From contig CM060734.1 in NCBI GenBank assembly GCA_030704615.1, positions 39,742,001-39,806,000 of the forward strand: a stretch of 64,000 nt of DNA. The letters run 5' to 3'. This DNA comes from Takakia lepidozioides (Eukaryota; Plantae; Bryophyta). A model generated the notes under the pieces. It was not told where the DNA came from and did not search any database. It saw only the letters and a list, made by a program, of their open reading frames with translations. Of the stretch, positions 1 through 59,251 are shown piece by piece (the first letter of the stretch is position 1; every line of letters begins with the position of its first letter). The position numbers and the translations under genes were made by a program.

Positions 1-756
1 GAGCGAGTCAAGCACATAGGGATGATGCATGTGACCTGCAAGAACCCTATCATTTATACTAAGTGGTACAACAGCCCACATGTTGCTATGCTTGGTCGCT
101 TCATCAATTTCTCCCCACACTGAAACAGTTTGAAGGGCCTCACCCCACCGTCACTAGCAATGCAGGAAAGATTGCAAGTTGGTAATATCAATCAAGCCCT
201 TCTTGATACTGTCAACACGATCCAGCCCCTGCATAAACGTCAACCTGAGAACAAGGACTGGATGGCGGAGATTGACCGGAAGCTCGAGGCACATTCTATA
301 TCTATCCGTACAGACCTGCACACCGACATCAACGATATGGAGACCCAGCTTGTAGACTCTATCACACACCAACAACTAGAATACCATAAGTACATGTTAT
401 CGCTACACAAATCCATCACCGAATCCTTGGGCCAAAATCTGGCAAACTTTTACCATCACGCGGGCCTCATTCTCGCAAAGTTGCCCCAACTCCCTGGCTC
501 CACCTCTACTCATGACAACGGGACCCCACCACCTGTGGAGCCTGGCTCTCTCTCTCATCGCCACCGCCCTGTCATAACGAACTTCTTCCATGCGGCACCC
601 GAACTCAATGCAATGCTGCACCCACAGGCCAAATCACGGCTCCCCAACGTGGCTGTCAACCTTGAACGCAGTGGAGAATCGTCACCTGCTCCCAACACAC
701 ACGCCGTTACAGCAGCTTTCGCTCTCTCCGCTGCACACAACGATGCTCATGCGTAA
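1..756 (+). pseudogene. C-terminal part of a putative LINE ORF1
   Basis: Frame 1 is open from base 1 except for TGA at 121-123; the 208-aa ORF has a helical/coiled-coil-like stretch. Position upstream of the APE-RT ORF. No diagnostic motif. Confidence 0.45.
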
Positions 757-3354
757 TTCCCTGGGGCAAAGCTGCACCCAACAGGCTTACTCTAGCTTCC
801 GAGTCGCACTCTATTCTCTTCTATGTGTTGTTTCCTTTCTCGTACTTTTATGTTTCAATGTATCCTGCTCAAAATGTTACTCTACAGCTCTGAATGATTC
901 CACCACGATAGCACACTCAATACAAACTCTCACTTTCTCTCCTACTTACTCTCAATCGTCACTCTGCACTACTGGTGTCCCCTGTCACCACTCTCCCCTC
1001 TCTCTACAATTTGCAATCACATCCCACGGTCTCAATAAAGCCATCAATCTCAATCACTACTAACCTAGGCCAACCGCGCCCTGCCCTGCCACCCGCCTAG
1101 CCACATGTTCTAGTCACGCCACGTGCCATAACCAGATCGCTGCTGACTCTCCCCCACGCACGTTTATATCTCAGCACCCCCACGTCTTCCTCCTCAACCC
1201 CAGCTATATCTGCACCCGAGACCGTTTGTACCCCACCTCTCCCTGCGTGGACCTACCATACCCCGCCACCTGCTGGCCCCTCCCACCTGCAACCCACACT
1301 GACCCTACCACCCACGGATGCACCGCGCGTGCAACCTTCCCCACCCTTGAAATTAACAACCCCCCCCCCCACATGCTCCCAAATTTAAATCTGTATAAAA
1401 TTCCCCCCACCCGTTACCACCCTCGCCCCTTATATCACTGCACCCACCCTGCCCTGCCACCTCAAGTCTCCTGGCATTATTACCTGGCACCCCCCAGAGC
1501 CCAGTGTTCAAATCCCCATACGCCAACACCACGCTTCGTGTATTGTACGGTCCTCTACACTACCCACCATATTACCCGCTAGACTTCCTAACGGTCCTAC
1601 CGACTATACGGTCCTACTAATACGCCCCAATACAAATAAAATTATAGCCCCCCACACTCATATGCCTGCACCAAATAGAATCATACTTTCCCACACTCAC
1701 ACATCCGTGACACGCAACCTGTATTTCATTCATTCGTGGATGCGTTCATCCACGTCCTCACCCAACGCCGTGCATCCACGCAACGCGCCTACCCTCCTTA
1801 TACTCTCCACACTACCAACAGCCACCCCCACCGAACGTCATCTCAGTCACCCTCGGAAACATCCATTCACTACCTGCCCAATTATACCCATATACAAAAA
1901 TAATAAGCCCATACTCCTACCCATGAACACCATGCAAACTTGGATAAATGTACCTCATCCAACCCAGCTAAATACACATACCCCTCCCCGCTACGGCTCC
2001 CCGTATCCCACCCATTTAGACTCATGCTCCCCACACCTTTATAATATGCCACTACATAATCGATACATGCTCACCCCTAACCATACCCCCTGCACTCACA
2101 CTCCTCTTACCCATCACCGACACTCATCCAAATTCAGGGTCCTTCATCCGTGCCTCTGCCCACACTCATCCATCCGAGTATGTCGCCCACTTATCCAATC
2201 TCCCCCACTCTAATTAAATCTATACTCCCCACCCAACATACATCCACATTAAATTTTTACCAACCCCACCACATGCGCTCCTACACAACAAACCCCTTCC
2301 ATGACCACCAGACGACTCCACACACTAATCTCAAAGCAATAAAATCCCCCCCACACACAAAAACAACCAGCTCCACACGTCCCCACCACGACACCACCAC
2401 ATTAACCCCCCTAATACACCTTTTCAACAACTACCCCATGCATCCCTACCCCCCGTTCCCTTAAAATCCAACTTATAATACACTGCCCACATGGGAGATA
2501 TCACCAAAAACCTCTCGCATCTAAACATTCATCTCACCATCCACCGTCCCACTCTAAGCCCTATAAACTTGCCTGTGAAACGCTTATACTACTACGCTGC
2601 GGCGACATCCACCCCAACCCAGGCCCCTCTACCATCACTAGCATCATCAACAAGCTTTCCACAGACCATAAAGCCAGATATGCACTATATTTCCAAGCAG
2701 ACATTGTTTCCCTCGTACTTGCATATCAACACCTTAATGGCCACTTCTCTCCTTTTCTCCCCACCCCTTCCACCAATAACCGCAAACCCACCCACCCAAT
2801 TGCCATCTTTTGGGCTCCCTGCCTGCCAACACCCTTTTCTAGTCAGTGCCACCCATAAACTTAGCACATATCCCATACAACACCTCATATTCTCACTAAT
2901 CATCATCATCTCCCCAATACCCTCAATATGCAACGACTACTTTCGAACCCAACCAGACACACGCATTTGTTCACTACTACAACAATTGCAGGATTTACCC
3001 ACGCTACCTCACAGATATCTAGCACCCCCACACTACCTACACAACCTCCACGAATCTCTTGGCTTACTACAAGCCCAACCTGGAGTAATCCACAGGATTC
3101 TCGGCAAACATCTGGCACACCCACTTGCAACCATTCACGAACTAGATCTCGTCGCCAACAAATTCCCATTCCTCTCCAAAAAAATTCTCACTGCAACCCT
3201 TCAAGCCAGGACCGGCATCCCTGGATATCAACCCCCGCCCATGAAACCGACACCCACTACCCCACCCTACATGGCCAGCTCCACCAGTGACTCACCTCCA
3301 ACCCCCCCAAGATCACACAACCCCCCACACACCTCCTCTTCCCTGCAAGCACAC

Positions 3355-4135
3355 GCACTCAACATACTTCCTTGGAATGTCGGATCACTTGCCACCAGCA
3401 TTCAAAGCCTTATCCATCTCACAGAGTCTACACCCCCGCACATCATCCTACTACAAGAAACTAAACTCAACACACACAACCCCAATAGTTCATATATCAA
3501 CAAACTCCTTCCAGCCTATTATATGTTGTATGGTAGCTCATTCACAGCCGCACAGTGCCTAACTAGACGTTCCGCGCCATAGCATCCTACCCGGGGCGGG
3601 GTGGCTTTTGGTATTCTCCGCACACATCACTCCCCTAGCACCATGGTCAAAATGCCTGTCGCTCTCCCCCTCCGCTCACACCTTCAAATCATCAAACTCC
3701 ACCTCCCCGCGCTCCTCCCCATTATCCTTATACACTTGTACATGCCCACACACGCCGAAGATCTCCCCTTGATCCCTGATATCCTATTTACCATCTCCAA
3801 CACACTAACCCAATCCTCCACCGACTCCCAACACTACATCCTAGGAGGCGATTTCAACAGGGACATTGCCCTGATGGGTCACACATACAACGGCATACGC
3901 AAAACTCCATCCCCTGCAGACCAGGAATGGGCCAAGTTTACTCAATCACACCACCTCCGTTATATACCCGCCGACCATCATTATTCCAGACAAGGTGGAC
4001 ACAACTACTCATCCTTAAGCCTTTTTTACGGCTTCTACCTCAGGACACAAAATGACACCCCAACGTACCTTAACAGTCATGTGCACATTAATAGTTTATG
4101 CAACTCAGACCATTATCCCATTTCAATAACCCTCC
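3355..4135 (+). pseudogene. LINE AP-like endonuclease domain (APE)
   Basis: Motifs ILPWNVGSL, IILLQETKL, ILGGDFNRD, NSDHYPI; one in-frame stop at 3580-3582. Confidence 0.92.
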
Positions 4136-5089
4136 CACCATCCCTCATCCCCTTTAGACCCATTCCACCCATACATGTTCCACCGCCGCAATCTAGAATT
4201 TTATCCCCACTCCCCCACAATAACATAGTCACCTTTCTAAAGCACTTCCAACCAACATCCTGACACATTATGCTAAAACTCTCTGACATACTCTCCGAAG
4301 CAAACCTTGCGCAGTCCCCAGACAAAGCCTGGATCGAAGCCGAGATCATACTCACAACTTCAATGAAAGAAATGACCAAAAGTGTCATTGCCACCTGCTC
4401 TGCCCCTCCTGAAATCCCACAAACTCCACGCTCAAAACAAAATGGTGGCTACCTTACCCGTACTCAAAAACATACATGGACATCACATCTTAACACATAC
4501 CACATGATCAGACGCGCCCTTACTATTATACCTACCACTACCTCCATACACCCGAGGAATAACTAGACATCGGATCCACGTATCACTTGCCTAAATACCT
4601 TGACAACATGTCAAGCACTTATGCCTCCACCTGCCAATCCTCAAGATATTCCTAATTGGATAGCTGCTCTCTCCAAAGTTGGAAGAGATGCCAAAAAAGC
4701 CGCTTACAGTATTACCAAACAAAAAGCCACCGCCAATCACAAAAAAAAATTCTCCTCTTTTAACCAACTACTATGTGACCACCCCAAAAAAACTCACAAA
4801 GCCATCTTTAACCTTGCCCTCAACCCACCAATCGATTGTCTCAAACATAGGCATGGCCACCTGCTAACTAATCCAATGGACATCAACCAAGAAATATGGT
4901 TACAAGCATCCTCGACCTACACTCCCACAGTTACAAACTGTCTACACCCTAGTCTCCACACTGCCAACTGTATGTGTAAAGCTAAATACTATCCATGGCA
5001 TGATATCGATGGCTTCTCGATTGACAGCAGAGGATCCCCAGCGGACCGCATTCTAGACTTATTCACAATAGATCTCTACAAATCATGTC

Positions 5090-6080
5090 TCAAAAAACTA
5101 TCTAAATCTAAAGCCCCGGGCCCTGATCTTATCCCAAATGCCATACTTCAAGTATTGGACCCTCAACTTCATCACCTCTTCTTTAAATTTTTTCAACTAT
5201 GTTACAAACTGAAACGAATCCCACACTCTTGGAAGCATAGCCGCACCATTTTACTCTTTAAAAAAGGTGACCCTACAGATCTTAGTAACTACAGGCCTAT
5301 AGCACTGGCCAACACCATATACAAGCTATTCACCAGCACGCTCACCACAATGCTCTCAAGCTATGGCGAACAACACCAAATTCTCAGTGACCCCTAAGAA
5401 GGATTCTGCGCTACGCGTAGTACAACAAGACAAATACAATATGTTCTATCTGCCCTCGAAGATGCTAAAATTACAAAGCAAGACATATATCTCTTATATA
5501 TCGACTTTAAAAATGTCTTCGGCTCCTTAGATCATGCTAGGCTACTAGCTATCATGCTTGATCTTGGGTACCCCACTGATGCCGTCCAACTTATAGGAAA
5601 CATCTACACAAATAGTACCATTGAATACTTTGGTGCCTACTATGGCTCCACCCCGCCTATCTCCATCCTCCGAGGAACCATCCAAGGAGACACCTTAAGT
5701 CCTTACCTATTCATTATCTTCCTAGAACCCCTACTCCGCTGGCTCGCCCGTGGCAAACTTGGGTATCAATACAAAACCTCCTCAAGTGACATCTCAGCTG
5801 CAGCATATGCAGATGATCTCGCCATCCTAGCACACAAACCACACCACCTAAACCGACAAGTTCATAAACTATTTCGATTCAATCTATGGTCAGGCATGGA
5901 ACTCAGCTTACACAAATGCGCCATCACTGCGCCACACATCACAGTCGGCTCACTAAAGCAGCCATAGCCTCACATTGCAAACTCTACGTACACTACCAAA
6001 ACACACCTTTCCCCTTCCTGGGACCAGATGAGCCATACACCTACCTGGGTATCCAATTAATACCCTCCCTCACCTGGCAC
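5090..6080 (+). pseudogene. LINE reverse transcriptase domain
   Basis: KAPGPDLIP, YRPIALANTIYKLF, YIDFKNVFGS, GTIQGDTLSPYLF, AYADDL, YTYLGI; stop at 5395-5397 and a frameshift near 5940. Confidence 0.95.
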
Positions 6081-7167
6081 ATCCAAAAAAACTCTACATC
6101 ATCCAAACTAGCTACCAACAATCTGGCCCTGCTCAAATCCCCAATTGTCATCCGTCCGAAACTATCAATTATTCAATCCGTACTACAAACACAAATCCAA
6201 TACTCATTTCACGCCGCACCCTTCTCCCTACCAGACATCAAAAAACTTGATAAAAAGCATTATTCAACTTACAAAGCGCGTCTGTGGCTTACCAACTAGT
6301 ACCCCTAATGCCCTCGCGCAACTCCCAACTGACAGCTACGGGATCGGTTCGAGCCCCTTAATCATATCATATGCTCGCACATTAGGTACACAATTAAAAG
6401 AAGCACTCAACGATCCTGGACGACTCGGTCTCATCTATCAGGGCCTCCTCAAACACCTCGCATTAAAATACAATGGTCTTTACTCACTATCATCATTACA
6501 CCCACAAGCCTGCCTACACTCCCCTACTGCCCGCACACTACTCATTCTACGCCAAATGACAATCAGCATACAAACCGACCTGCTAGATTACCCTAACACC
6601 TCGTCACCCCTAGAACGCGCATGGCTCACAAGCCCTTTCTTATCACAATTCGACATCTCTCATCCAAAACAAAAAATCCCCATCCTCACCTATTTCAAAG
6701 AACGCAAATTACCACCATCACCCAACTTACCACCGCCTCCGGCCGTCGACTCTTAAAACCCAGCAAATTCACTCTTAAATTCTCCCGAGCTACTACCAAA
6801 ACCACTCGATACCTACACCATCTCCGAACCCTCTTCTGTCATCCCTCAGCAACCTGCACCCTCCACTGCAATATCCCATGTCTCTACTATCCCCATACGG
6901 TTCAAGACCTACTCCCCCAGTACCAATCCTCCCCTACTACCTCCATCTACCAACACTTAGAACGGCATATGCCGCCAATACCCCACAATCACAGAACCCG
7001 GCCCCCATCTACTAACACTACCTACAAACATACCGAACTTGACCACAACCCGAATGTGCCATTCACCCCTCACCTAATATGCAAGGCTCCCCCACCACTC
7101 CCAACCACTCACCACCCCCCCCCCCCCCCCCCCGTCTTCTCCACACAACGATAACAATAATAATGCA

Positions 7168-7310
7168 TACATCATTGAAGCCATACTAGGAGTCAAAATC
7201 CAAACATCAATCGATGCCTTTGGTGCCACCTGTATTGACACCTACTACCACTGTAAATGGGTTGGTTACTCCTCAGAAGACAACACATGGCAAATAGAAG
7301 ATGATCTATT
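7168..7310 (+). other. Chromodomain embedded in LINE ORF2
   Basis: Frame-1 translation (not in the ORF track): YIIEAILGVKIQ...YYHCKWVGYSSEDNTWQIEDDL, matching the chromodomain consensus YxVExIL...YxVKWxGYxxxxNTWExxxNL. Confidence 0.8.
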
Positions 7311-7777
7311 TGGCCTACATGACGATTGTGACCCCGAACACAATCTTGCCCTTCTCACCTCCTTCCATAAACATACTAACATGGACTACTTAACACACAT
7401 TCACCAACAACATACCACCCCCGCCCAACTTACAGATAGTCATTACATTCACCAGTCGATCTCTGCCCCTAACGTGCACATATGCATAACTGAGTGTAAC
7501 CCCATCAAAGATGTCAAGCACTTTTTTACGCGGGCCCCTGCCTTTCCAATATTTACGCTCAACACGGCCGCTTCATTGGAATCATTCCTAATAACAGATT
7601 AACATGGTTGTGGGAGAAGTATTATGCTGCCAACTCATACCCACAATCTCTACAACCCCCAAAACAAGACTTCGCGACCAAATTATATTGGCTCGTAGAC
7701 CGCTACCTCAAAGACACCCCCCCCCCCCCCCCCCCAAGGAGCCACGATCCCTCACCCGACTAGAAATGGCATGCGCA

Positions 7778-8065
7778 CACCATGCCGTACCCCAAGATAT
7801 CCTCGCCTTGCTTATCCATACATTCCAGCTTACTCACTCATATTACTCCAATCCACTGACATGTCCTATGGACTTGCACACATTTTCCAGCCCGCACCAC
7901 AGGGATTGTCTCTTTGGAGCTACCGGTAATGCTACCCAACATACCTGGGAGGGTAAGGGCTTTGCCCACCCCCCCTCTGGCCCTCTCGCTTATGAAGCTC
8001 TCCAATGGGCAAGATTCGCAACACACTCCTCTCCTTTTGCCTCCACAATCCTCATCCTCACACAA
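7778..8065 (+). other. PCIF1/CAPAM-like N6-adenine methyltransferase-fold segment in LINE ORF2 (catalytic motif degenerate)
   Basis: HAVPQDILALLIHTFQLTHSYYSNPLTC..FSSPHHRDCLFGATG..WEGKGFAHPPS parallels the PCIF1 core as recalled (..LP..VF..L...F.V..ECFASPLNC..Y.S....D..FGS.G....GSFEANPPF). Confidence 0.55.
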
Positions 8066-8489
8066 CAAAATACACCTAGCACCCCCCACCCTCTCCTACG
8101 ACTCCCGAAAGGGGTCAATCTACTCACCACAATTGACCCAAATCAGCTTAAGTACGCTCATACCCCCCTCTTCCCAAGTACCTCAAAAGGAAAGAACCTA
8201 CCGCTAACTCTGATTCTACATGTCCAAAACCCCCTTCACACAAACATACCAACACCTTTTTTCCACCAGCTAGACCAGTTGCTAACCATAACTCATAAAA
8301 TGAAGGCCACCATCCATCACCCAGCTACACCCCCACACACCCGCACAACCACCACATCTCCCCGGATCAGAACAAACAAAGCCTGGGGCATGGCACAACC
8401 GCGCCCCCCCAGGTAATACCAGCAACCCTCCTTCCCCCAATCCCCTTGATATACCAGCAAAACACCACCCTCAAGTATCCCCCGACAAA

Positions 8490-8890
8490 CTCACAATACA
8501 CTGCTAGATCCCTCACCAAACCCAATGCAGGCTATGGAATTTATCACGCCGGCAGCGGTCGGGGTGTTGCCCTCCGGCTCCCTGGCCCTGCCACCATCCT
8601 GAGGGCTGAGCTCATGGCCATCCACGACGCCCTCTCTCTACTTGACGCTTCCCCCCCCCCCCCCCCCCATACTACATTTTTCAATGATAGCCTCACCTCT
8701 CTATTTCTTATTCGAAATCATATCTCCCGCTCTTCTTCCCAATATCATCACCCCGACCGCAACCTCATTGCCGACATTGTCCAAAGGGCCATTTCCAAAA
8801 ACCATCCAGTCCATTTCCTCAAAGTCCGCTCGCACACTGGCATTCATGGTAATGAAGAAGCAGACCTACTCGCTCAACTCGGAGCCTCTC
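8490..8890 (+). pseudogene. LINE RNase H domain
   Basis: GYGIY, ILRAELMAI, FNDSLTSL, FLKVRSHTGIHGNEEADLLA; the first motif reads YTARS instead of YTDGS. Confidence 0.9.
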
Positions 8891-9237
8891 AACCCACAAT
8901 CGAACCCACAACCGACCCTATTCACATCGCCCATACCCACCCCTTCTGGTTCATACACCCCGTCTCGGACCCCCCTGCACCCGGACCAATCCAAAACCTT
9001 TTGACCACTCTAACTAGAGAAGCAAACAAGCAAGTTGCAGCCTCCCTCAGTCACACCAAAGTACACATCCAAAAATGGACTCAATCAAATGTATTACACC
9101 ATAAACTCTCTAATTATTTCTGGCTAACCAAAACTACCACTGATGCACAAATCCGACAAACACTCAAATTCAGATACGCCCAATACATGGGTCACCAGCA
9201 CAAACACATCTTCTGGCCGCATATGTTCCCTTCTCCA

Positions 9238-9906
9238 TACTGCCCATTATGCTCAAGCACTCACCAAGCTCGTGACACCTGGCCACATCTCCTCAACCAA
9301 TGTACACACCCGATCATACATGGCCTTCATATCACGCGACACAACTAGGCAGTCTGGCACCTCCATAAGCTCTTTCTAAACCGTGCTGAAACCAGATGGT
9401 TCTCGCTCATAAACGTTGGCACCTACCAAGGTCGGCCACCCGACCACATTGTGCCACCCTGGATGCTACCGTGTATATGTACCCGATCACCATGCTCATG
9501 CCCTGCTAGGCTTTGTCCGGACATACTCCTTGTACAAGGCCTACCCATTAACACCCTACCCCCCACCTCACCATCCTCACAATTCACCATTCATTTTATT
9601 GAATTCACATTTTGCCACGATCGTTACCCCAATGACTCGATTTTAGAAAAACGTAAAAAATATGCCTCGCTTATCCGTGCAATCAGACGGTATGGATGGA
9701 AAACTGGGCCGTTAACCGTCATCACCGTCGGTACTCGAGGAGGCATTCATAATGTCAGCATCACCGACATACATGATAACTTCAAAATTCCCACTCTTCC
9801 CATTCACAAATGCTTCAAAGCAATTCACCTTACGGCACTCCGTTCACTCACAGCTATTATCACCAACAAATGCCAACTGGAATCCGGCACCTCAATCGCA
9901 CCCTAG
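9238..9906 (+). pseudogene. CCHC zinc finger plus restriction-like endonuclease (RLE)
   Basis: CPLC..DTWPHLLNQC..RHN, then (R>C)PDILL..IEFTF..EKRKKY..GW..VITVGTRGGI, the typical C-terminus of RLE-type non-LTR elements; stop at 9346-9348. Confidence 0.88.
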
Positions 9907-9943
9907 GTCCCTCAGGGTACCCCTGGGTGCCCAGGGGTACCAC

Positions 9944-10937
9944 TGTCGCGCGGCTTTTACTCACCCATCCCTTTGCTATCCGAGGCGGAAACTCCAAGAT
10001 AGAAGAGTTGGAAATCTCTAAGCACTCAGCCCGCTCAGAACAATCAGTCATGACCTACAGCTAGTGTATCATGGGGGTGTTTCCTATTTGTTTTCCTTCC
10101 CGCATTCATGTTAGCTAGTTACCTTACTGTGGTAATTAAGTATCAGTTTGCTTCAGCAATCTATCGGATTTCATCAACTCATCCATTCATTCCACAGCTT
10201 CACTCAGATCTCTCTACACAGTGTGAGTATGAAGTGTGTATCAGATTAATATCTATCAAGTATCAGTCTGAAGCCATGGAGTCTCTAATCTGCTCTACAT
10301 TACAATTCTATAGCTTGCATTTATTAAGCATCAACAGATCGTCCTCCTCCTACTCCGTGCTCTCCCTCTTTCTGCTCAGAGATACGCTCTCTGCCTCATT
10401 TTCCCCCCGTGATATCCGAAGTCCCCCAATAAGTGCTCCCCCACTCCTTCCAGCAGTGATTCCCCAAGAAGTGATCTTTTTCCAGTCTCGCTCCTCGCTT
10501 TATCTTCCTACCCGTTGTTCTAACCGTTTCCCTCACTAACCGTCATCCGTGAACTAACATGTTCCATTCGCAGATGTTGTTCCCCACAGTCGTTCCCTGT
10601 CTGCTATCCGTTCCCTATGGTGTCGTGACAGCTGTGTTCAAGCTGTGTGACTGTGTGTTGGACTGTTGTGTGGAGTGTGTCGTGTCTGTGTGTGTGGACT
10701 GACGGGCTGTGTGTTGGGTGTGAAGAGTGTTGGCTGTGACGGGTGTGTCGGACGAGCTGTGCTGTGACGGGCTGTGTCGGACTGTGACGAGCTGTGTTGG
10801 CTGTGACGGGCTGTGTAACCTCCCCTAAAGTGCACTGCTGTCACCCCTAAGGCTCCTGTTGGTCTCAGTCTGTGCAAAAATTAAGGGTACCCCACAGATC
10901 CCGTAAAAGTGTCTAAGTCCCAGACAGTCCTCTAACA
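9944..10937 (-). mobile_element. Solo LTR of gypsy family C
   Basis: TG...CA ends; aligns end to end with 49419-50464; 5-bp TSD ACCAC at 9939-9943 and 10938-10942. Confidence 0.95.
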
Positions 10938-11076
10938 ACCACAAACTACATTCTACGGTCACCTAGTATCCCACAAGACACCTTTCTTTTATAGGGCCCA
11001 CCCTCGAAAGGGGGCAGTAGCCGCAAGGCGAAGTGGCTCTTAGTTACGCCGGCTTCAGCCGGAGTCTTCTCTCTCT

Positions 11077-11785
11077 TTGAAGCAAACGGATGACATTCGG
11101 GGATATGTTCAGGCTTTTAATAAGCTATTGCTCGAAGTTGCGGATATGGCGGAACCAGAAATGGTCTTCAACTTTGTGGTGTGACAGGCCCGTGGGCCAG
11201 GCGGAAGTTGGAAGAGAAGCCACCTAAGACTTTGAACGAGGCAATTGAAAGGGCTGAATATTTCTCGGATGTCCCTACGGGCGAAAGACAAGGTCGTACA
11301 AAGCTGAACCACAAGAAGACTCGGCGGGAAGGTGACTCCTTCCGACCGGAAAAGAAGTGGGATAGGCCACGCGGCGACAATAGCACATAAAAATCGAAGG
11401 GAGGGCCTTCACACGTCAAGGCAGCACTCGGTGCTCCGAAAAGAAAATCAGGTGCGGCGGCTTATGGCGGACAGAAGGAGACATTCGATGGAGTGTGCTT
11501 TAATTGCGGGGAGCCCGGACACATGGCCAAGAAGTGCGCGAAACCCCGATAATTGAACATGACTCGGGCGACCACGGAGCTATCCGAAGAGTCCATCAAC
11601 CGCTTGGTGGAGGCGGTAGTCGCCAAGACTTGCAAGGTAGGCAACTACGCTTGTGGTTGTACCAGGAGACTGGCCCCTTGCGTAAATGGAGTCGGTTAAT
11701 GTTCGTGAGTGGGATAATTTCCGGAACTATGGTGTCGTTGTTGATGGACACATGAGCGTCATGCAAGTTCGTCGAGGGCTCCATC
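11077..11785 (+). pseudogene. Fragment of gypsy family B gag/protease
   Basis: Homologous to the reverse complement of about 28700-29460 (GPWARRKLEEKPPKTLNEAIERAE; knuckle CFNCGEPGHMAKKC). Confidence 0.9.
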
Positions 11786-12134
11786 CAAAGCCGCATCACA
11801 AGAAACAAACAAACATGTCCAAATTTAAGATGCTAAACAAACTTGTGCACAGGGCTGCCCCTCTCATCAAGCTCATTAAAATTCGTATTCACTTCCATCT
11901 TCAAGCCTTGGAGAAGCTCCACCACCCAAACCCAGAATTAGGACAGCACTCTGAGTTCCATCCACTGCCACCAGAATGAGTCAAAAAATGCCCTTTCAGT
12001 CAAGCTGACTTCCCACCTATGCCGGGTAGACCCCATGATGGTCAATACTCCTAGGAAATGGTGGATGGTCTGAGTAGCTACACAGATCAATGAATGAAGC
12101 AAGACACTCGCATCTTTCCAAGAAAGCATCCTTT

Positions 12135-12810
12135 CACTAGTAATCACCACAAGAACAAATCCCATCTTCAAAGTGGTGAAAGCGGTTAGCGTCTTCTTGA
12201 TGAGACAGAGAGGCATCCTAGGGGTCGTCTGATCAGCCCAAAACCAATGGCCAGCTTCTCACTGTGGTGGCAAAGAGAAAATTCCTTTTCCTCCTCCCCA
12301 CATCATGCAATACAAAGTGCGTGTCATACCCCACCTCCTTCATCTGCCCAGACAATCTTCTCAGCTCAACATGGATTTCCTTAATTCTAGGATGCAACTT
12401 GTCATCTACAATGAAGGTGTGCACCCTGTTGCCAACCTCAATGTAGCAGCGACCTGGCTCCTTTTTAACCCCTCTCACCTTCATCATTCTTCTCACCTAT
12501 GCAGTATCATCCCACTTGCCAACTGCAGCATAGACGTTTGATAGCAACAAGTCGTGACATCCTGTTCATCCTACTTGAGCATAGATGTTGCCACATGTTT
12601 AGCCATCTCCACATTGCCATGGATTTTGCAGGCACCAAGCAAGGCCTTTCATACCACAACATCTGGATTGATTGGCATTTTATTAATCATGTCCACTGCC
12701 TCATCCAGTTGTCCCGCACGTCCAAGAAGATCCACCATGTAGCCAAAGTGCTTTACTGTCGGAGTGATACCATGATCTTGACTCAGGGAATCAAAGTAGT
12801 GTCTTCCTTT
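12135..12810 (-). pseudogene. 3' part of a PLS-class PPR-E+/DYW RNA-editing factor gene
   Basis: GVKKEPGRCYIEV..HTF..HP, CHHSEKLAIGFGLI, RFHHFEDGICSCGDY* (the terminal Trp codon reads TAG); the CxxCH segment is deleted; frameshifts. Confidence 0.92.
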
Positions 12811-13137
12811 TGTCAAGTTATTTTACCACTAGTGTGAAACTAGCTAGGAAATAGCTAGCTTTTACATATTGACATTTGGGATTGGCCCAAGTGTCAATCC
12901 AGGGGTCAAGGCAGATTTAGGCCCTGGAGTGGTTATCTTCACGGCAAGCGCGGGAGGCTCATCTTTCTCGAGTTGAGCCTCACCGCGCCTAGCTATGGCG
13001 CCGTAGTATGATTTCCCCATGGCGTGGGGTGCACTTGGCTTGACTTGTATTTGAGTGATGAGGTTATATATGCATGAGTTTATGCTTCAGCTTTGTGAGC
13101 TCGCATGAGCTTGTGCTTGTATTCTTCCTCTTTATCA
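12811..13137 (+). repeat. Family A LTR segment B (5' terminus)
   Basis: 327 bp, TGTCAAG...TTTATCA; repeated at 23357-23482 (partial), 27164-27489 and, inverted, 52064-52390. Confidence 0.95.
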
Positions 13138-14514: not shown

Positions 14515-15010
14515 GGGCCTATGGCCTGTGGGGTTGTGACCTGTGAGGGGTTGTGACAGGCTGTGCCTGTGGCCTGTGGGGCTGTGACAGGCTGTTCCCT
14601 GTGGCCTGTGGGCCTGGCCCGGCTGTGCCCTGTGCCCTGACCCCTGTGACCTGTGTAGGGCTATGACAGGCTGTGATGGGCTGTGAGGGGCTATGCCCTG
14701 TGGCCTGTGGGGCTGTGACGGGCTGTGACAGGCTGTGGCCTTTGGGGCTGTGACCCCTCTGACCTGTGTAGGGATGTGACGGGATGTGACAGGCTGTGGC
14801 CTTTGGGGCTGTGACCCCTGTGACCTGTGTAGGGCTGTGACAGGTTGTGGCCTTTTGGGGCTGTGCTGTGTGCCTGTGACAGGCTGTGACCCCTGTGACC
14901 TGTGTGGGGCTGTGACAGGCTTTGACCTGTGGCTTTGGGGGTGTGATGGCTGTGGTGTGGGGCTGTGACGGCTGTGACCAGTGATGTGTGTGGGCCTGTG
15001 CTGGTCTATG
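14515..15010 (+). repeat. Degenerate GGCTGTGAC/GCCTGTG tandem array in the family A 5' UTR
   Basis: Visible short-period repeats; longer inverted counterpart at about 35160-36109. Confidence 0.9.
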
Positions 15011-15889
15011 GTGGCCCGTGTTGATTTGTGGACAGCTTGTACTGACTCGTGGAGGCACTGGTGGACTGCCTAAGGACTGGCATGTCTTGAAGGCCGAATT
15101 TTGAAGCTCGTGGAGGACGGTTTGAGGAGTATCTTCATGATATTTCCATGGTCATGCAAGCGAGGGAAGAGAGGAGAGAAGAGTGTTGGGATGAGGGCAT
15201 GCTGGGGTAGGCATTGCTTTAGCTTCTCTTCCTCGTAGTTTTCCACCCTCTCATTAGGCCAAGACCTTTCCGTAGGTGGAGGCAAAAATCAGTCCGGGTT
15301 TGGGCTGGGGTATCCTTGCAGAGCAACACCGTGGAGTTGTTTTGGTGGGAATTGTCTGATTTCTGTTTGGATCCCCTCCATACCTGCATGCTTGACTGTG
15401 CGCCATGTTAGTTTTGTGTGGGCGCTTGTTTTTATAGGTGATTCGTCCGGATTTGATTCACCGGCCAGTCCTAGAGCATGCTGTCGATTGTGAGGCTGGG
15501 GTGATGACCAGTCAGACCATCATTGTTTCTCCTGTGGTGAGGTTGGAGGTGATGACCAGCCAACCATAGGAGTGCTTGCGGTGGATGTAGGTGCAGGTGT
15601 AGGCTATGTTAGGAACCTTAGTATTCCAAACCATAAGCCGCAACAGGTTCTCTACCCCGGTTACCTTGTGGAGAGGGGGGTTAGGGACCCCGGTTGAGTG
15701 ACAGTTTGTCAACACGGAGGTGCCACTAGTTGCTGGGGACAGTGTCGGTTCGAGCACTAGCGATACTAGTGGGTACACGAGACGAGGTGTGCGGTTTAGG
15801 CCACCTTCACCTCCTGTGTCTTCTACGGAAGGTTCTGATTCAGATTGTGAATCAGGAGGACTCACACCGGCGGTGCAAGTTGTTTCCTT

Positions 15890-17100
15890 GCCATTGTTGT
15901 GGGACGCGATGGAGGAGATCTATGGAGCTACCAAGGGGCCACGAAGGTACTCTGGGGCAATAGGCACCATCGAGTTGGATGATTTTATCCAAGAGTTTGA
16001 TAGTTGGTCTATTTGCAGCAAATGCGCAATCCACAACTATTTACGTCTTTCATGGCATGGAAGGGGCTGTTTCAGCACCTTGAGGGGCCGCCTATGGATG
16101 ATACCATGAGTTCAGGGGGGGCATGAGGTTGAGATCGAGGAGTGGAGGATGTACTGGTCACCCGACTATGTCTCCATCATTAGGGGCACTAGAGCCACGA
16201 GGGCAGTGGCTACACCTGCCGCTGCATCGGCAGCTTCAGCAAGCAGCAATGGGACTAGTGGGACTGGTGGTACAGTAGCTACGACGTCCACCCAAGCCAC
16301 TACCGCACCAGCACTAGCACCCGTGCCTGCCTTCAACCCTGTTGTGGAGTTCTTCGAAGAGTTGAGAGGGAACTACCAAGGGGTGAGGACAGAGAAGTTG
16401 CGGAGCTTGCAAGAGTTCCAACGGAAGCCGACCGAGAGCTTGAGGGAGGCTTTCACTCGCATGAGGCGCTTGATAAATGTAACCCAAGGGGTTACGGAAG
16501 CTCAGGCAGTCCAATTCTGGTATGGGATATTGGACAAGGAGCTGAGGAGAAGGGTGCGGGATGCAACTCTCCTACAAGCGGCCCAACCCACCTTAGCAAA
16601 TGTGTTTTTGCTGGCAGAGCGGATAGAGCTCAACATGGTGGAGGAACGAGTGGTCATGGTGGGATTTGCTAAGGAGACACCACGGGGTAGTGGTGCTCCT
16701 AGCCAACCACTACCTCAACGTGCTCAAGGCAACAAGGGGCTCAGGTGAAGCTCAGGGAAGGGCAGAGAGGACCTCAGATGCAGGGGTCTCTCCCTTCATT
16801 TGCTGGCCAACAACGGGCGGATGTGGTGTGTTGGACATGTGGAGGACCCCATGTCAAGAAGGATTGTCCAGAGGGAGGCAAAGGGCCGGCACATGCACAG
16901 CCTGCACAGTTGCAGTGTGGGCATTGTGGCAAGCACGGGCATGGAGAGGCCCAGTGTTATGGTTTGCATCCTGAGTTGCGCCCAGGCCAGTTCCAAGGGA
17001 ACAATGGTGGCCGGGGCGAGGTGGAGCAGCCCAGAGAGGACGAGGTGGCCAGCCACGGGTGAGGCCAAGGGCAAGCTCAACATGGCCAAGGACGCGGAGG
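15890..17100 (+). pseudogene. Family A gag with two zinc knuckles
   Basis: FQRKPTESLREAFTRMRRL; CWTCGGPHVKKDC; CGHCGKHGHGEAQC; frameshifts. Confidence 0.9.
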
Positions 17101-17849
17101 TCAGGGTGTTGACCAAGGCATGGCCAACCGGCTTCAAGCTAGAGCAGAGGCTCGCTGCCATGGCTACAGCTCAGGTGGTACCGGCTCCAAGGCCGGATGG
17201 TCCACCTCCTGCTCCTGAGGGAGGAGATATGGGAGGCATGGGATTCATGTGTGGAGCAGCACTACCACTAGTGCAGGTGGAGTCTGCTGCAGCCGTGACT
17301 CGAGGAGCAGCAGAGTTCCTGAGCCACGAGGTGCAGAGGTGGAGTTGGATCCACAGCGTGGGGAGGCAAGCCGTCAGGCTAGGCTTCCTCAGTCATTCAC
17401 ATTGGCGAGAGACAGTGTCGACGCCATCCATGGCACCTAGTTCTCGCCCGACTGTTACCGAGGCGGAGGTTACTATGCCATTGGGGAGAGCTACACGGGT
17501 AGCACCACTACCTAGTGTTGCCAAGGCTACGGCAGCTAGTGTGCTGCTGGGAGCGGCCACATCTGTGTGCCAGGCTCCATTGTTCTCGGCTACCATGATT
17601 GCGACGCCGGGGGTAAAGACCAGCTGAGGTGTTCAGGCTGGCAGCTACACTCTGTGAGAGTGGGGAGGTTACTTCATCTTCTGCGGAGATAGTGGGAGGT
17701 GTGTAGTGCCGGAGGGATCCTCGGATTTGAGGGTCAAGACTGCCACGGCGGCGCCATGGCAAGCTGCAGCTGCAAGGTTGATGGAGCTGCCAGCTAGGCC
17801 AGCCATTGAGCGCGCCATGGTGACACCTGGAGTTGTCATGTTAGACAAC

Positions 17850-18260
17850 CAGGATGGCATTTTCTGTTTGAGTGGACCGGCAGGCAAGAGGTACCGGCCA
17901 CTGCGGGTCTTGTTGGACTCGGGAGCTCAGCCATTGATGCTGGGGGAGCTGCTATTGCAGGCTTGGGCCTCACGGAGGCGGATATAGAGCCTTGTCCTTT
18001 CAGATACAGACGTCTCTGGGAGGATCGGAGCAAGCTCGGGGCATGACACGGCGTGAGTTGGCTATCAGACTACGGCCGGATCACCCTACAGATGGCTCAG
18101 TGATGCGAGCCAAGGCCATTGTGACAGACGCAGTCTCGTACGATGTCCTGGTTGGTGGGGCAGTGTTGTACCCCATGGGCTTCACCCTGGATTTTTGGGA
18201 AGAGTCAGCTTCCTATAGGCCTGGATGGCAGTCAGGGGAGGGCCGGCGTGTGCAGCTCCC
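17850..18260 (+). pseudogene. Family A aspartic protease
   Basis: RVLLDSGAQPLM and YDVLVGGAVL motifs. Confidence 0.88.
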
Positions 18261-18609
18261 TGTGACGTTCATAGGAGGAGTTGCGGTTACCCAGCGGGGC
18301 AAGATGCCGACACTAGCAGCATTCACAGCAGTGAGTTGGCCTGGAGAGTTGCTTGAGGGCAACTCATTCAGAGGATGTGCCACCTCGGGAGAGCAGGATG
18401 ACATGTATGGTATGGCGGAGTTGCCTGTCATGGTTGCTCAGACTCCATTGTGGGGCACGAGCAAGGATTTGCAGCGGGATGCTGATCGACGGGTGCAACA
18501 AGCCTGGGTGGAGGCTTTTGTACCGTCAAGAGAGGAGGAGAGTGGGGATTGCACCAGGACCACCTATTGTCTCCATTGGACACCACACCTATTGTGTGGC
18601 AGTATCCGG

Positions 18610-19545
18610 ATGAAGGCATTTGTCTTCTGGACTTGTTTGGCGGGATCAGCACCAAATTGGCTGCTGTGTTACAGGCAGGTTTACGAGTTCGGCGTTACCT
18701 ATATGTGGAGAGGGATGAGACTGCACGACGCGTTTCACTTCGCCATGTTGCTCAGTTGGGCAGCGGTACCCTGAGTTGTTGTCGATGTCAATTCGTGGAT
18801 ATCAGCAGGCCTTGCCAACAGACATTTCGTTGCTGGGGGCGCAGGATTTGGAGCGGGTTGGCTCCATTGATCTGGTAGTGGCAGGTTGGCCTGCCAAGGG
18901 CATTCATCAGCCGGGCATGGCAATGGATTGCGAGACTCAAGGTCGGGTCTGTTTTGGGAGATGGTGCGGGTTTTGCGCCACTTGCAGCTTCATCAAGCTG
19001 TATCTCCAGCATACATCTTGGAGAATGTGCCACTGATGGCGATTCTCGGGCCAGGGTGATGGCCAGTGTGCATCAAGTCCGGTCATGGCTTGGGTCAGCA
19101 GTGTTGCTAGATGCAGCTACAGTGGGGTCACGGGCTCATCGTCCACGGCTATGGTGGACTAACTTGATGCCACCCGCACTGCTCAAGCGTGCATTTGATG
19201 GGGTGCAGCGGCCAGCACATCTCACAGTGGATACATTTTGGACACAGGGAGGCAGTCTCAGCGTGTGAGACACGATGACCGTTCGCCTTTGGCAGTGTCA
19301 ACAAGGTGGGTCAACCACGAGCACATTACCTACACTGCTCAGCTTCCCAGGATCGCATGCTTTCCGGGATAGTGGACCTGGCCTCCTGTGGGATGCTCAG
19401 TTGCAGCAGTTAGTGGAGCCTAATGCTGACGAGCGTGAGCGGGCAATGGGTTTTACCACTGGTACCACGGCGGTGCCGTCTCTTTCTGAGGCATCACGTC
19501 GTCAGTGTTGGGGCAAGCATGGATCTCAATTGCTTGACCTGGATT
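18610..19545 (+). pseudogene. C5 cytosine DNA methyltransferase domain (DNMT3-like) within the gypsy polyprotein
   Basis: Motif I LLDLFGGIS, II YVERD, III ADI/TDI, IV DLVVAGWP(C)QG, VI YILENV, VIII HRPRLWWTNL, IX ERERAMGF, X RRQ..G..MD. Confidence 0.92.
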
Positions 19546-19899: not shown

Positions 19900-21285
19900 G
19901 TTGCAGTTACGGAGGACAATTGGGAGCCTGACATTGGACCCATTGTCACCGGAGGAGAGAGACGACGTATACGGCGGTTCCTGAGGGCTTACAGGAATTG
20001 CTTTGCCTTCAGTTTGAAGGACTTGGGAGCACTGAAGGGTCAAGAGATCCGTATTGAGTTGGCCACTGACACGCCAATCTTTCGGAGACCATAGATACAG
20101 TGACATGGAGAGGTCTTTGATTCAGATGAGGACTCAAGATCTCTGGGAGGCAGGTTTGGTGGAGCTCTCTGGTGGAGAGTATGCTTCAGCACAGTGATGC
20201 CAGCCAAGAAGGATGTCTATGGCAATTGGACGGAGAGACGTATGTGCGGTGATTACCGGCCTGTAAATCGTCAGACCAAGTCCGATAAGTATGCCATGCC
20301 AACACCAGAGGAGATCTTTGATGCCATAGGGCATGCTAAGGCCTTTAGCACTTTGGATTTACGATCCGGATATCACCAGTTGCCAATCAAGGAGGCGGAC
20401 AAGCAGAAGACGGCATTCTGGGGGATCAATGAGCACGGCATGCAAGTTTTCAGAGAGTCATAGATAGGATTCTAGCAGGGGTGGACTTTGCTCGGTGCTA
20501 CATAGATGATATCATCATCTTTAGTGTTACGATGGAGGAGCATGAGAGACACCTTCAGGTGGTATTGGAGCGCTTGAGAGCGCACGGATTGAAGTTGCAT
20601 CCGGGGAAGTGCAAATTTTTCCACAACCAGATTGAGTATCTGGGTCACATGATATATCCTGGAGGATTGGGGGTACAGCAGACTAAGGTAGAGGCCATTG
20701 CACAAATTCCACCCCACGGATGTGAGCCGAGTTGAGCTTTCATGGGTTGGCAAACTATTATAGACGGTTTGTCAAGGGATTAGTACCATTGCAAAGGCTC
20801 TAACCAAGCTGACCAAGGTGGACCAGGAGTGGCAGTGGGAAGATGAGCAGGAACGAGCTTTTCAAGAGCTCAAGGCGAGGTTGACCTCGGCGCCTATCCT
20901 GAGACGACCTATCAGGGGGCGTCCCTTTCAGCTGCATACGGATTGGAGCATGCTGGGGCTTGGAGCGGTGCTCACACAGGTGGATGATGAGGGAAGAGAG
21001 TTCGTAGTGGCTTACGCTAGCCGCTCGAACAACGCTGCAGAGGCTAAGTACAGCTCATATGAGGGAGAGTGCTTAGCTGCAGTGTGGGCCGTGGCACACT
21101 TCAGGTGCTATCTATACGGCAATCTTTTCACCCTTGTCACGGATCACCAGCCACTCAAGTGGTTGATGGAGTCAGACAAGCTTACGGGGAAGCTTGCACG
21201 GTGGGCACTCATACTCCAGGAGTATGACTTTCAGGTTGTGCATCGACCGGTTTGGTCAATCGGGATGCGGATGGATTGAGTCGCA
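19900..21285 (+). pseudogene. Family A RT and RNase H
   Basis: [55 protein letters not shown]. The FGLKNAP region seen in copy 2 is deleted here near 20440. Confidence 0.95.
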
Positions 21286-21639
21286 ATCCATGCATGAGCC
21301 AGCAGGATGACACTGGAGCTCGGTGGCATGGTGAGACGGACGAGGAGATGGTGCCGGGATGGCACGCATCTGCATTTTTGTGTATCTTGGCATCGGGAGG
21401 TCAGATTGGACCTACAACAGGGATGACTGTAGACGGAGTGTCTGAGGACCCTGAAGCTAGTGATGAGCCAGGTGGTGCCAGAGATATACATGAGGATTCG
21501 GCTGTGTTGGACTACCTCCGCACGGGAGACACGGCAGCCATTGTGACTGCCCAGGGAGAGGGATCGGATCCTGCAACGAGCCAAGAGGTTCAAGTGGGAG
21601 GGGATACACCTACTTCGAGTGTGGAGGGTGGTCGGGTGA

Positions 21640-22740
21640 GGATTGTGCCTCACCCCACACAGCGTGCACGGTTAGTGCGGCATGCCCATGAGGAGTTGGG
21701 GCATTTTGGAGTGCGACGCACTCACAGTTTACTGGCAGTATTGGTGCGTGGTATGCATACAGAGGTGCAACAGTTTGTGGCTAGGTGCATGGTGTGTGAC
21801 AGGGTGCGTGCTTCGTTTAACGCCCCTACACCACAGTTGCATCCTTTACCTATCATGGGATTGGGGCTACAGTGGAGTCTTGACTTCGCAGGACCGTTGC
21901 CACTGACTATGCGCCACCACAGATATGTGTTGGTGATGGTGGAGCACTTCTCCAAGTGGATTGAGTTGGTTCCATTGCCTGACAAGGCTAGTGAGGGGGC
22001 TGCGTATGCATTCTTGGATCGTGTGCTTAGCCGATTTGGTGCTCCAGCTGAGGTACTCACGGACCAAGGGAGAGAGTTCTTGGGGGAGTTTCAGGCTTTG
22101 TGTGATAAAGCCTTGATAGACCACCGCACCACTTCTCGGGATCATCCTGAGGCCGATGGCTTAGCAGAGAGAGTTTGTTCAGACGGTGAAGAGGGGTTTG
22201 CGCAAGTATGGCTTGCAGAAGGGACACCTAGGAGATTGGGATCTTCAGGTTCCTTGGTTAGCCATGGGCTACAGGTTCAGCAAACAAGCATCACTTGCCT
22301 CCTTCTCACCATATTTCCTTCTCTTTGGCCGAGAGCCGGATTTGCCTGCAGCCATTCGTAGGGACACTGCTCAAGTCCTTAACCTTGACGATCCGGACGT
22401 GTGGGTACGTGCATGTGATCAGCGTGCAGAGTTGTTCAAGAAAGTCATGCCCATGGCTTTTGAGAACCTTGCCATTGCACAGCACCGTGATACGTTGAGG
22501 TATGCCACTATACGTGGTGGAGGATATCGTCCTGGGGTTCAGAGGTTTAGCCCTGGTGACTATGTTTATTTGCAGCAGACTGCTCCTACGACTCTGGATG
22601 TTACTCAGGCGTGTTATTTTGAGGGTTCGAGAGGTGTTGCCCTCAGGGTCCTGATCTTGGAGGGTCGGGATGGCATGACTTGGAAAGACCATGTGCGTAA
22701 TTGTGCGCCATGTCACCTTCCCAATGTCGATGGCAGAGTT
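21640..22740 (+). pseudogene. Family A DDE integrase
   Basis: HEELGHFG..CMVC zinc finger, SLDFAGP, LTDQGREF, ADGLAER. Confidence 0.93.
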
Positions 22741-26600: not shown

Positions 26601-27678
26601 CCACCATGCTGGTGTGTGATCGATGCTCAAGGGGTTGGCATATGGGATGCTTGACACCACCTCTTGAGAAGGTTCCTGACGGAGATTGGTTGTGTCCACA
26701 CTGCTTGGGATAGTGGCAGTGGACATGACTGGAGGCAGCTAACAAGACATGGGAGGCCAAGCTCATAGGAGTCAATACATGAGATCCCAAGCTCAAGTTC
26801 ACAGGTTGCAAGACGGCGACTAACGATGGGGCAACTCTTGCACCCGGCCTCTTGATCTATCGAGTTTGAGTGTAGTAGAGATAGTGGTGGAGGACTTAGT
26901 GAGGCTATGGTCACTATCACATCTTGTGGCTACCTGGACTTAGAGGGACCTAAGCACCAGCTAGGGGGGCGATTGTGTGGACTAGTGACTGCCATAGTGG
27001 GCAGCGTAGTGGCAGCCTAGTGACTGACTAGTTGTAGCCTAGTGGTTGGACTAGTGGCTGGACTAGTGGTGGACTAGTGGTATACTAGTGTGTGGTGTGC
27101 ACATGTGTTGTGTGGTTTTGGACAGCGATGTAGTTGTGTAGCGATATGTATGCGCACGACAGCTGTCAAGTTATTTTACCACTAGTGTGAAACTAGTAGG
27201 AAATAGCTAGCTTTTACATATTGACATTTGGGATTGGCCCAAGTGTCAATCCAGGGGTCAAGGCAGATTTAGGCCCTGGAGTGGTTATCTTCACGGCAAG
27301 CCCGGGAGGCTCATCTTTCTCGAGTTGAGCCTCACCGCGCCTAGCTATGGCGCCGTAGTGTGGATTCCCCATGGCGTGGGGTGCACTTGGCTTGACTTGT
27401 ATTTGAGTGATGAGGTTATATATGCATGAGTTTATGCTTCAGCTTTGTGAGCTCGCATGAGCTTGTGCTTGTATTCTTCCTCTTTATCATTGTGTGGACT
27501 AGTGACTGCCATAGTGGGCAGCGTAGTGGCAGCCTAGTGACTGACTAGTTGTAGCCTAGTGGTTGGACTAGTGACTGGACTAGTGGTAGACTAGTGGTAT
27601 ACTAGTGTGTGGTGTGCACATGTATTGTGTGGTTTTGGACAGCGATGTAGTTGTGTAGCGATATGTATGCGCACGACA
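23681..27678 (+). mobile_element. Family A copy 2, 3' half (RT-RH-IN-PHD, then LTR segments A-B-A)
   Basis: Near-identical to about 20005-23482; ends ...GCACGACA at 27678. Confidence 0.95.
26569..26710 (+). other. PHD finger (C4HC3) fused to integrase
   Basis: CMLCGSAKGAATMLVCDRCSRGWHMGCLTPPLEKVPDGDWLCPHC. Confidence 0.95.
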
Positions 27679-59030: not shown

Positions 59031-59251
59031 CCAATTTAACAATAATGATTTAAAAATGACCTCAACTATTGGCGGATGGAGTAATTTATAAAACAATTCA
59101 TTCACTTGCCAAGGTGTCGCTTGGAATACAACGTGTCAACCTACGTGGCATATTTTTCACGTAACTCATGTTTTACTGATTTTTCGGCAAAACTGACGTG
59201 ACGTTGGTCGAGTCAGCGTCAGGTCCGACGTGACTGACGTGTACAACCCTG

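Follow-up and report, generated by a model that had tools for sequence, protein, structure and literature searches.

Dualen (RandI) elements are long interspersed nuclear elements (LINEs) whose defining trait is the possession of two endonucleases, and cryptophyte members carrying a C48 protease have also been described (PMC5029228). They have been regarded as a link between LINEs with a restriction-like endonuclease (RLE) and LINEs with an apurinic/apyrimidinic endonuclease-like domain (APE) (PMC4640811). In this study, we examined a LINE in a 64,000-nucleotide stretch of DNA (the window), which an initial annotation had assigned to this group from the letters of positions 3355 to 9906. Judging from the sequence, this part of the window very likely belongs to a decayed, multi-copy Dualen/RandI LINE in a land-plant genome. 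The remark of that annotation that Dualens are characterized mainly from green algae is right, although incomplete, because cryptophyte members have been published. The supplement of PMC4438587 has a RandI/Dualen mark against Chlamydomonas, Volvox, and Chlorella (read by eye), and the land-plant rows examined, among which Selaginella is the sole non-seed plant, carry no such mark. No title on Dualens of land plants came up in a full-text literature search, and there could be more entries in Repbase. The 2005 abstract of Kojima and Fujiwara is said to list both Chlamydomonas and Arabidopsis thaliana as Dualen sources. It is thus uncertain whether a land-plant Dualen is new in print.

Domain anatomy and decay of the copy

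Three-frame translation, Pfam searches, and motif alignment placed APE, reverse transcriptase (RT), RNase H, a CCHC knuckle, and RLE in this order on the plus strand of 3355-9906 (Table 1). The LINE exceeds this span and extends from approximately 2300-2500, or from further upstream, to 11076. The strand skew of 1000-2400 was the same as that of the element, and this stretch could be a divergent N-terminal part of the LINE.

Table 1. Positions of the LINE, its domains, and neighboring features in the window
Feature	Position	Strand	Remarks
Dualen/RandI-type LINE copy	2300..11076	+	5' limit approximate, possibly further upstream; based on coverage by contigs of run X1
2A-like ribosome-skipping motif	2583..2627	+	Frame 3; core DIHPNPGP at 2604-2627
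APE	3355..4140	+	Stop at 3580; conserved Asp replaced at 4027; Pfam and motif alignment
RT and downstream thumb region	4600..6630	+	Core 5263-5931; YADD 5806-5817; stop at 5395; frame changes at about 5929 and 6250
Chromodomain	7168..7311	+	Pfam Chromo E = 3.3e-5, 24.2 bits; in the open frame 7078-7602
PCIF1/CAPAM-like adenine-methyltransferase-fold domain	7542..8320	+	Core 7769-7975; motif HPPS
RNase H	8497..8886	+	Pfam match 8524-8886, E = 8.4e-10; first acidic residue replaced in the window copy
CCHC knuckle, RHN, and PD..E..K RLE	9241..9906	+	Internal stop at 9346; stop of the open reading frame at 9904-9906
Solo long terminal repeat (LTR; TG..CA) in the LINE 3' untranslated region (UTR)	9944..10937		Target-site duplication ACCAC at 9939-9943 and 10938-10942
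Distal 3' UTR and short (CT)n tail	10943..11076	+	219 X1 contigs exit the window after 11076 with CT-repeat starts; sequence
PPR-E-E+-DYW pseudogene	11900-12900	-	E motif E = 2.5e-10; DYW E = 2.7e-6
Second decayed PPR gene	59000-60400	-	PPR remnant 59544-60020; Atlas neighbors commonest in Streptophyta

APE motifs had been noted N-terminal of RT, and they were recovered by Pfam at 3373-3861 (E = 1.7e-4, in the frame that reads through the stop), with Exo_endo_phos_2 extending to approximately 4120 (E = 3.7e-4); both matches were under the Pfam cut-off. Motif residues N3376, E3457, Y3739, D3850, N3856, D4108, and H4111 were as in the 72 APE-bearing relatives, and a single conserved Asp differed. 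The RT core was matched by Pfam with an E value of 6.5e-26. RNase H was located between RT and RLE, as annotated, and its first acidic residue is an Asp codon in 25 contigs of the public DNA run X1 (allele at 8504). For the C-terminal RLE part, Pfam gave no match. In the alignment with relatives, C9241, C9250, H9286, C9301, R9337, H9340, P9517, and D9520 were invariant in all 38 rows, E9601 was present in 37 of the 38, and K9649 in 29. An AlphaFold model of the C-terminus (predicted local distance difference test [pLDDT] score, 80.6) had R2 retrotransposon proteins as all of its top seven PDB matches (E = 8e-5 to 1.7e-3), with six PDB matches at E ≤ 0.001. Single-sequence PDB searches with the RLE part and with the methyltransferase-like part described below returned chance matches only. 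The invariant motif columns and the R2-like predicted fold support the annotated CCHC-RHN-PD..E..K RLE, and the sequence and model together indicate that both endonucleases are in one element.

The copy at 2300-11076 is dead and has no evident function. The tblastn frames revealed five frame changes, at about 5929, 6250, 7530, 7725, and 8320-8400, and five stops interrupt the conserved path (3580, 4261, 4564, 5395, and 9346), in addition to the replaced APE Asp. Three further frame-1 stops are in a linker whose frame cannot be assigned. It had been remarked that many stops fit single transitions; however, every stop codon is one transition away from CAA, CAG, CGA, or TGG, and the remark is therefore uninformative. 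Against relatives, such an origin was clear for only one of the five stops, that at 5395, which stands opposite Gln in 115 of 119 alignments. The stop at 9346 is opposite mostly Lys (75 of 138 among the matches listed) and that at 3580 opposite mostly Tyr, and for 4261 and 4564 the ancestral residue was unclear from relatives. The annotated single long ORF2 (second open reading frame [ORF]) holds for the relatives, which are single ORFs, but not for the present copy, which is broken by stops and frame changes. At 2808 and 5929, other copies have indels that agree with a single frame, and no intact close relative was recovered whole.

The 3' end of the LINE at 11076 is a short (CT)n, which was also found in the loose ends of the 219 contigs at this junction, and thus it is a microsatellite tail and not poly(A). 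The 994-bp solo LTR is not part of the LINE and was inserted later; two contigs bypass it (jump from 9870 to 10989). Its family has three copies in the window (9944-10937, 36114-37136, and 49419-50465) that are 83-94% identical. Hairpins in the 3' UTR folded no better than shuffled sequences (z = -1.1, -0.14, and -0.41), and the idea of a ribozyme or structured tail was dropped on these scores. Rfam gave no match in positions 1-12000 of the window. A perfect 11-bp hairpin at 9916-9942 (plus strand) is just 3' of the stop codon and beside the LTR insertion site; it was not above shuffles.

The last approximately 65 bases of the LINE tail (11011-11076, plus strand) were common to contigs with different upstream sequence, and contigs of runs X6 and X7 had loose ends before 11011-11036. 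In Chlamydomonas, SINEX elements share the RandI tail (PMC3747384), and by analogy a family of short interspersed nuclear elements possibly borrows the tail of this LINE.

Upstream region and the segment between RT and RNase H

A separate upstream ORF1 had also been proposed, and we found no evidence for it. Instead, the region contains a 2A-like motif, and other copies lack one base at 2808, which brings this motif into the APE frame. The 2A consensus is a D(V/I)ExNPGP core behind a hydrophobic stretch. In the window, the core follows LILLRCG and has His at the Glu position, the same as in protein P0041. Cores of this kind were found in 6 of 152 stored proteins, all of them Dualen-type. The sequence is therefore best read as carrying a 2A-like motif, rather than a separate ORF1, upstream of APE. 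In several relatives, the motif is followed by a protease (assigned by eye; Pfam Josephin or OTU), with OTU as the accessory protease in P0005 and P0020, unlike in the window, where none is detectable and a decayed one may lie further upstream.

Two candidates in this region were rejected. The ORF at 124-756 had no Pfam match and no match to 338 Dualen-related proteins, and its best Atlas match (0.80) is a lead at most; hence, it was not accepted as ORF1. This plus-strand ORF is open over 210 codons, looks coiled-coil-like by eye, and is without a family match. A second CCHC-like stretch at 2805-3065 (E = 2e-4, with 338 queries) was dropped because other copies shift frame at 2808. Among the runs listed with matching sequence, none was labeled as RNA. 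Two runs guessed to be RNA had contigs over 1-972 and over short LINE parts and none over 1201-4000, and a contig of one of them extends past the window start; no conclusion was drawn from these runs.

Between RT and RNase H, the window contains a chromodomain and a PCIF1-like domain. The initial annotation had overlooked these two domains, the 2A-like motif, and the true 3' end beyond the solo LTR. By eye, a motif in the frame of the chromodomain is similar to one that algal-type Dualens have upstream of their methyltransferase-like domain. Other copies hold variants of the chromodomain, and contig joints (6928 to 7163 and 7412 to 7536) bridge both of its flanks. A phmmer search found no homolog of the window chromodomain among the 338 stored proteins. 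In the same interval of 22 relatives scanned, a weak Chromo match was present in 2 and PHD or PHD_2 in 5. From these sequence matches, the interval between RT and the PCIF1-like domain looks like a variable slot for chromatin readers.

The PCIF1-like domain was matched by Pfam PF12237 with an E value of only 0.027 in the window and down to 9.7e-18 in relatives, and the profile was found in 15 of 22 members scanned. A family profile, built from 21 relatives and, from the window, only its C-terminal part, matched the catalytic half of human PCIF1 (6irv) with an E value of 1.4e-9. A full-text literature search retrieved no title on a PCIF1-like domain in LINEs, and none of the six Dualen-type proteins scanned had a PHROGs methyltransferase match to this domain. 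The catalytic motif of PCIF1 is NPPF. At the probable catalytic position, the window has HPPS and its closest relatives have HPPD and IPPH. Among the 60 retrieved proteins with the domain, NPEY was found in 10 and (N/S/H)-P-x-(Y/F) in 14, including these 10, and the motif was altered in the remainder. The altered motif suggests that the domain in the lineage of the window is not a catalytic NPPF-type methyltransferase and is likely inactive.

One Dualen-type polyprotein, P0149, carries a C5 DNA methylase match (E = 1.2e-7) in addition to the PCIF1-like match (E = 9.7e-18) before RNase H, and P0145, a shorter protein in the same cluster of P0017, has a C5 match too. From their domain content, these proteins could be the LINE equivalent of the dual-methylase elements called "EpiLTR".

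Relatives, copy family, and host

An RT-region search retrieved 93 proteins at E ≤ 1e-20, and these proteins and P0003 made up the 94 stored representatives, in which domains were assigned by iterated profiles. APE was found in 72, the PCIF1-like domain in 60, RNase H in 64, and RLE in 59. APE, RT, the PCIF1-like domain, RNase H, and RLE were present in the window order in one unbroken ORF in 40 of the 94. The spacings of these domains in the window (615, 854, 240, and 249 amino acids) fell within the ranges in the relatives (412-802, 811-1160, 222-318, and 224-335 amino acids, respectively). The named RT matches were from Parachlorella, Pleodorina, and Haematococcus, the last two bearing Josephin, and were 37-44% identical in RT. 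In a quick IQ-TREE analysis of 90 RT rows, from which the short sequences P0076, P0081, P0084, P0087, and P0093 were dropped, the window paired with P0004 (61% identity; Shimodaira-Hasegawa-like approximate likelihood ratio test [SH-aLRT] value, 99). The window fell, together with the named algal proteins, into a 75-row group (SH-aLRT 90) that excluded the most distant of the retrieved RTs. The presence of APE and RLE in one element and the grouping of RT in this quick tree bear out the assignment to Dualen/RandI.

In addition, 1.84 billion representatives were searched with the RNase H-RLE part, which gave a closer set, largely of short fragments, with approximately 40-53% identity. With 33-52% identity to the window, the close group is a deep one. 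In the C-terminal tree, the window and 17 rows were separated from the algal-type proteins (SH-aLRT 99), and because these rows were picked as close matches the clade is partly a product of selection. Two close relatives, P0153 and P0306, align with the window from the PCIF1-like domain through RLE. A metagenome contig scan with P0153 gave only short RNase H-like matches at all seven loci and was not used.

Many related copies were found in public DNA runs. Contigs of run X1 with at least 80% identity numbered 2-4 at 1770-2335, 16 at 2531, 26 at 7199, and 55 at 9296 among the sites listed; most of the listed body sites had 13-55 contigs, and the 3' junction had 219. This rise from 5' to 3' is the pattern expected from 5' truncation. 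On 1700-7900, 2734 contigs were found, of which 1144 were less than 90% alike, which marks the family as old and varied. Each of the 30 bins of 1700-7900 was also covered by contigs from a plant metagenome of another study (X5). Copy number was not derived from summed contig depth.

The host was assessed from the neighboring sequence. The PPR-E-E+-DYW architecture (PPR, pentatricopeptide repeat) is that of a land-plant organellar editing factor, and a pseudogene of this type is located approximately 0.8 kb from the LINE 3' end. Its E+ stretch is, we presume, moss-like. This pseudogene, the Streptophyta neighbors of the second PPR remnant, and the recurrence in the window of the LTR found inside the LINE make a land-plant host very likely, as had been annotated.

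Several points weigh against the reading as a land-plant Dualen with two endonucleases and a methyltransferase-like domain. The Asp present in all 72 relatives is Tyr in the window at 4027. No target-site duplication of the LINE was found between 11071-12500 and 1-3400 beyond chance 10-14-mers, so that a step in which both nucleases cut has no local support; the 5' end of the LINE is not fixed. No cysteine protease was found after the 2A-like motif by Pfam in three frames of 1-3300 or by comparison with the 338 proteins. The chromodomain score is just short of the Pfam cut-off of 25.1 bits. The model of the PCIF1-like domain is mediocre (pLDDT 64.5), its VIA Z scores of 6.2 for Dam and 5.8 for PCIF1 are in the noise range, and Foldseek found nothing at E ≤ 0.001, with PCIF1 ranked 2, 4, and 39. 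The RT tree was built without Repbase reference elements and was anchored by three named algal proteins. Runs X1 to X4 are one sample that may be related to the assembly source, and X1 is perhaps not independent. Among the contigs listed, none spanned the whole element.

Four alternatives were considered. The first concerns origin only and posits horizontal transfer from an alga rather than inheritance from a green-plant ancestor. This would fit the missing Dualen marks in the land-plant rows of PMC4438587 examined by eye, but the nearest named algal proteins are only distantly similar in RT and the depth of the close group fits an old lineage; we consider a transfer unlikely. In the second, the element is a Dualen by descent in which one nuclease, most likely RLE, still works, and APE is vestigial in the lineage. 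The lost Asp at 4027, the APE scores under the Pfam cut-off, and the lack of a long target duplication are in its favor. However, P0004, the closest relative in the RT tree, has an intact frame with this Asp and the other APE motifs, the Asp is conserved in every APE-bearing relative, and the APE region is 43.5% identical to P0004 inside one long alignment and covered by many contigs. Thus, a vestigial APE is improbable.

In the third alternative, the host is not a land plant, and the window comes from a charophyte alga or is an algal segment that was joined to a plant assembly. In the literature, Dualens are from algae or cryptophytes (PMC5029228 and PMC3747384), Gypsy elements with a cytosine methyltransferase, as in the window, are described from Klebsormidium (PMC5890265), and the Atlas neighbors resolve to Streptophyta only. 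Because the PPR-DYW pseudogene is close to the LINE, the LTR inserted in the LINE has further copies in the window, and the C-terminus groups with 17 selected close matches apart from the algal-type proteins, such a host is very improbable. Finally, a chimera or nested insertion of an APE-type and an RLE-type LINE, to which the frame changes and a linker (6630-7150) with no detectable homology to relatives might point, is hardly credible, because the two halves occur together in one ORF with the same order and matching spacing in 40 of the 94 proteins, the alignments of P0153 and P0306 extend over the PCIF1-like domain, RLE, and the part between them, and contig joints connect the chromodomain with the linker on one side and with the following part on the other. 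A single Dualen/RandI lineage in a land plant, with both nucleases in one element, is therefore preferred.

The remainder of the window was Gypsy and hAT debris. A Gypsy-type element at 30800-33900 (minus strand) contains gag, a protease motif (by eye), and a C5 cytosine methyltransferase (Pfam E = 1.7e-7). A second Gypsy-methyltransferase copy, 92.8% identical, is within 14522-19308 (plus strand), with RT, RNase H, and integrase at 20104-22358 (plus strand). Transposon methylases are reported to be absent from tracheophytes (PMC6338049). At 25514-26710 (plus strand), a PHD finger (E = 2.4e-11) comes after a Gypsy integrase region. A hAT-type DUF659 remnant at 57109-57756 (minus strand) is between inverted arrays of an approximately 50-bp tandem repeat (53800-54720 and 58410-59045), which are possibly the ends of one element.

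Proposed mechanism and comparison with known systems

The ancestor of this copy likely encoded one long polyprotein with a 2A-like motif, APE, RT, a chromodomain, a PCIF1-like domain, RNase H, CCHC, and RLE. By analogy with other LINEs, it would with high confidence have inserted into new sites by target-primed reverse transcription of its own RNA from a nick, with its 3' tail recognized, and RNase H would have removed the RNA template. We slightly favor a scheme, also by analogy, in which each nuclease had its own strand, so that the nick of one would have primed RT and the other would have made the second cut; in Chlamydomonas, a dual action has been proposed for the very long target duplications of Dualen-4b (PMC9977147). 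There is about an even chance that an N-terminal moiety, set free or down-tuned by means of the 2A-like motif, took the place of a separate ORF1. More tentatively, the chromodomain might have read methylated histone tails and biased insertion to repeat-rich chromatin; the repeat-dense surroundings fit such targeting but do not prove it. The PCIF1-like domain in this lineage was probably a catalytically dead module that bound nucleic acid or S-adenosylmethionine, and a minority of algal-type relatives would keep a motif compatible with adenine methylation. Streptophyta are reported to be without abundant genomic N6-methyladenine (bioRxiv 10.64898/2026.05.21.726589). This scarcity would fit a loss of catalysis in plants; the argument is weak, because most algal-type relatives are altered too.

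A multi-copy land-plant lineage would widen the range of Dualens, and such LINEs can be mislabeled in plant repeat annotation. The PCIF1-like domain and the adjoining chromatin reader would extend the capture of methyltransferases by retrotransposons to LINEs, and the presence of a methyltransferase-fold domain across the group, next to a chromatin reader, is what would most likely surprise a specialist. The respective roles of the two Dualen nucleases are a standing question in the field, and Chlamydomonas has an active Dualen. As a speculative possibility, Dualen LINEs could have persisted in non-seed land plants as an old lineage that diversified, and an overlooked epigenetic toolkit between RT and RNase H could be common to all Dualens. 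It would consist of a swappable chromodomain or PHD reader and a PCIF1-like adenine methyltransferase; some algal members would use the latter to mark their own RNA or cDNA, and the plant lineage would have retained it as a dead binding module.

Compared with the Dualen/RandI group, the LINE in the window shares APE, RT, RNase H, CCHC, and RLE, which its ancestor likely joined in a single long polyprotein, and it has an RT that groups with the Pleodorina, Haematococcus, and Parachlorella proteins, and a microsatellite tail, as all eight RandI elements in the table of PMC3747384 have non-poly(A) tails. The 2A-like motif, which is upstream of APE in the window, has a parallel in the 2A-like peptides of Haematococcus Dualens (bioRxiv 2026.06.17.732966). 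The LINE in the window differs from the group in its very likely land-plant host, its (CT)n tail, its dead state, the clear chromodomain between RT and the PCIF1-like domain, and the lack of a detected Josephin, OTU, or C48 protease; the subgroup bearing a Josephin-type protease differs in particular, as the window has no protease upstream of APE. Dualen-4b_cRei of Chlamydomonas reinhardtii, likened here by description only, shares the dual endonuclease and is the only Dualen reported to be active, and its target duplications have a median of 900 bp (PMC9977147), whereas none was found in the window.

The family profile of the PCIF1-like domain resembles the catalytic half of PCIF1/CAPAM, the cap-adenosine N6-methyltransferase (6irv and 6irx), but the window domain sits in a LINE polyprotein, has the motif HPPS, and was not filed as a member. 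DAM-LTR, DIRS-MT, and EpiLTR similarly combine an adenine-methyltransferase fold with a chromodomain in retrotransposons (bioRxiv 10.64898/2026.05.21.726589); in contrast, they are LTR or DIRS elements with phage-Dam-like domains, and the main text of that preprint mentions neither PCIF1 nor RandI and has no LINE class. Unlike ordinary plant L1 and RTE elements, the LINE in the window has RLE besides APE, and its profile scores L1 ORF2p far below R2. R2 (8gh6, 9dou, and 9nl2) provides the closest solved fold for the CCHC-RLE part, and the RT profile scores it above L1; however, R2 has neither APE nor RNase H and is specific to rDNA.

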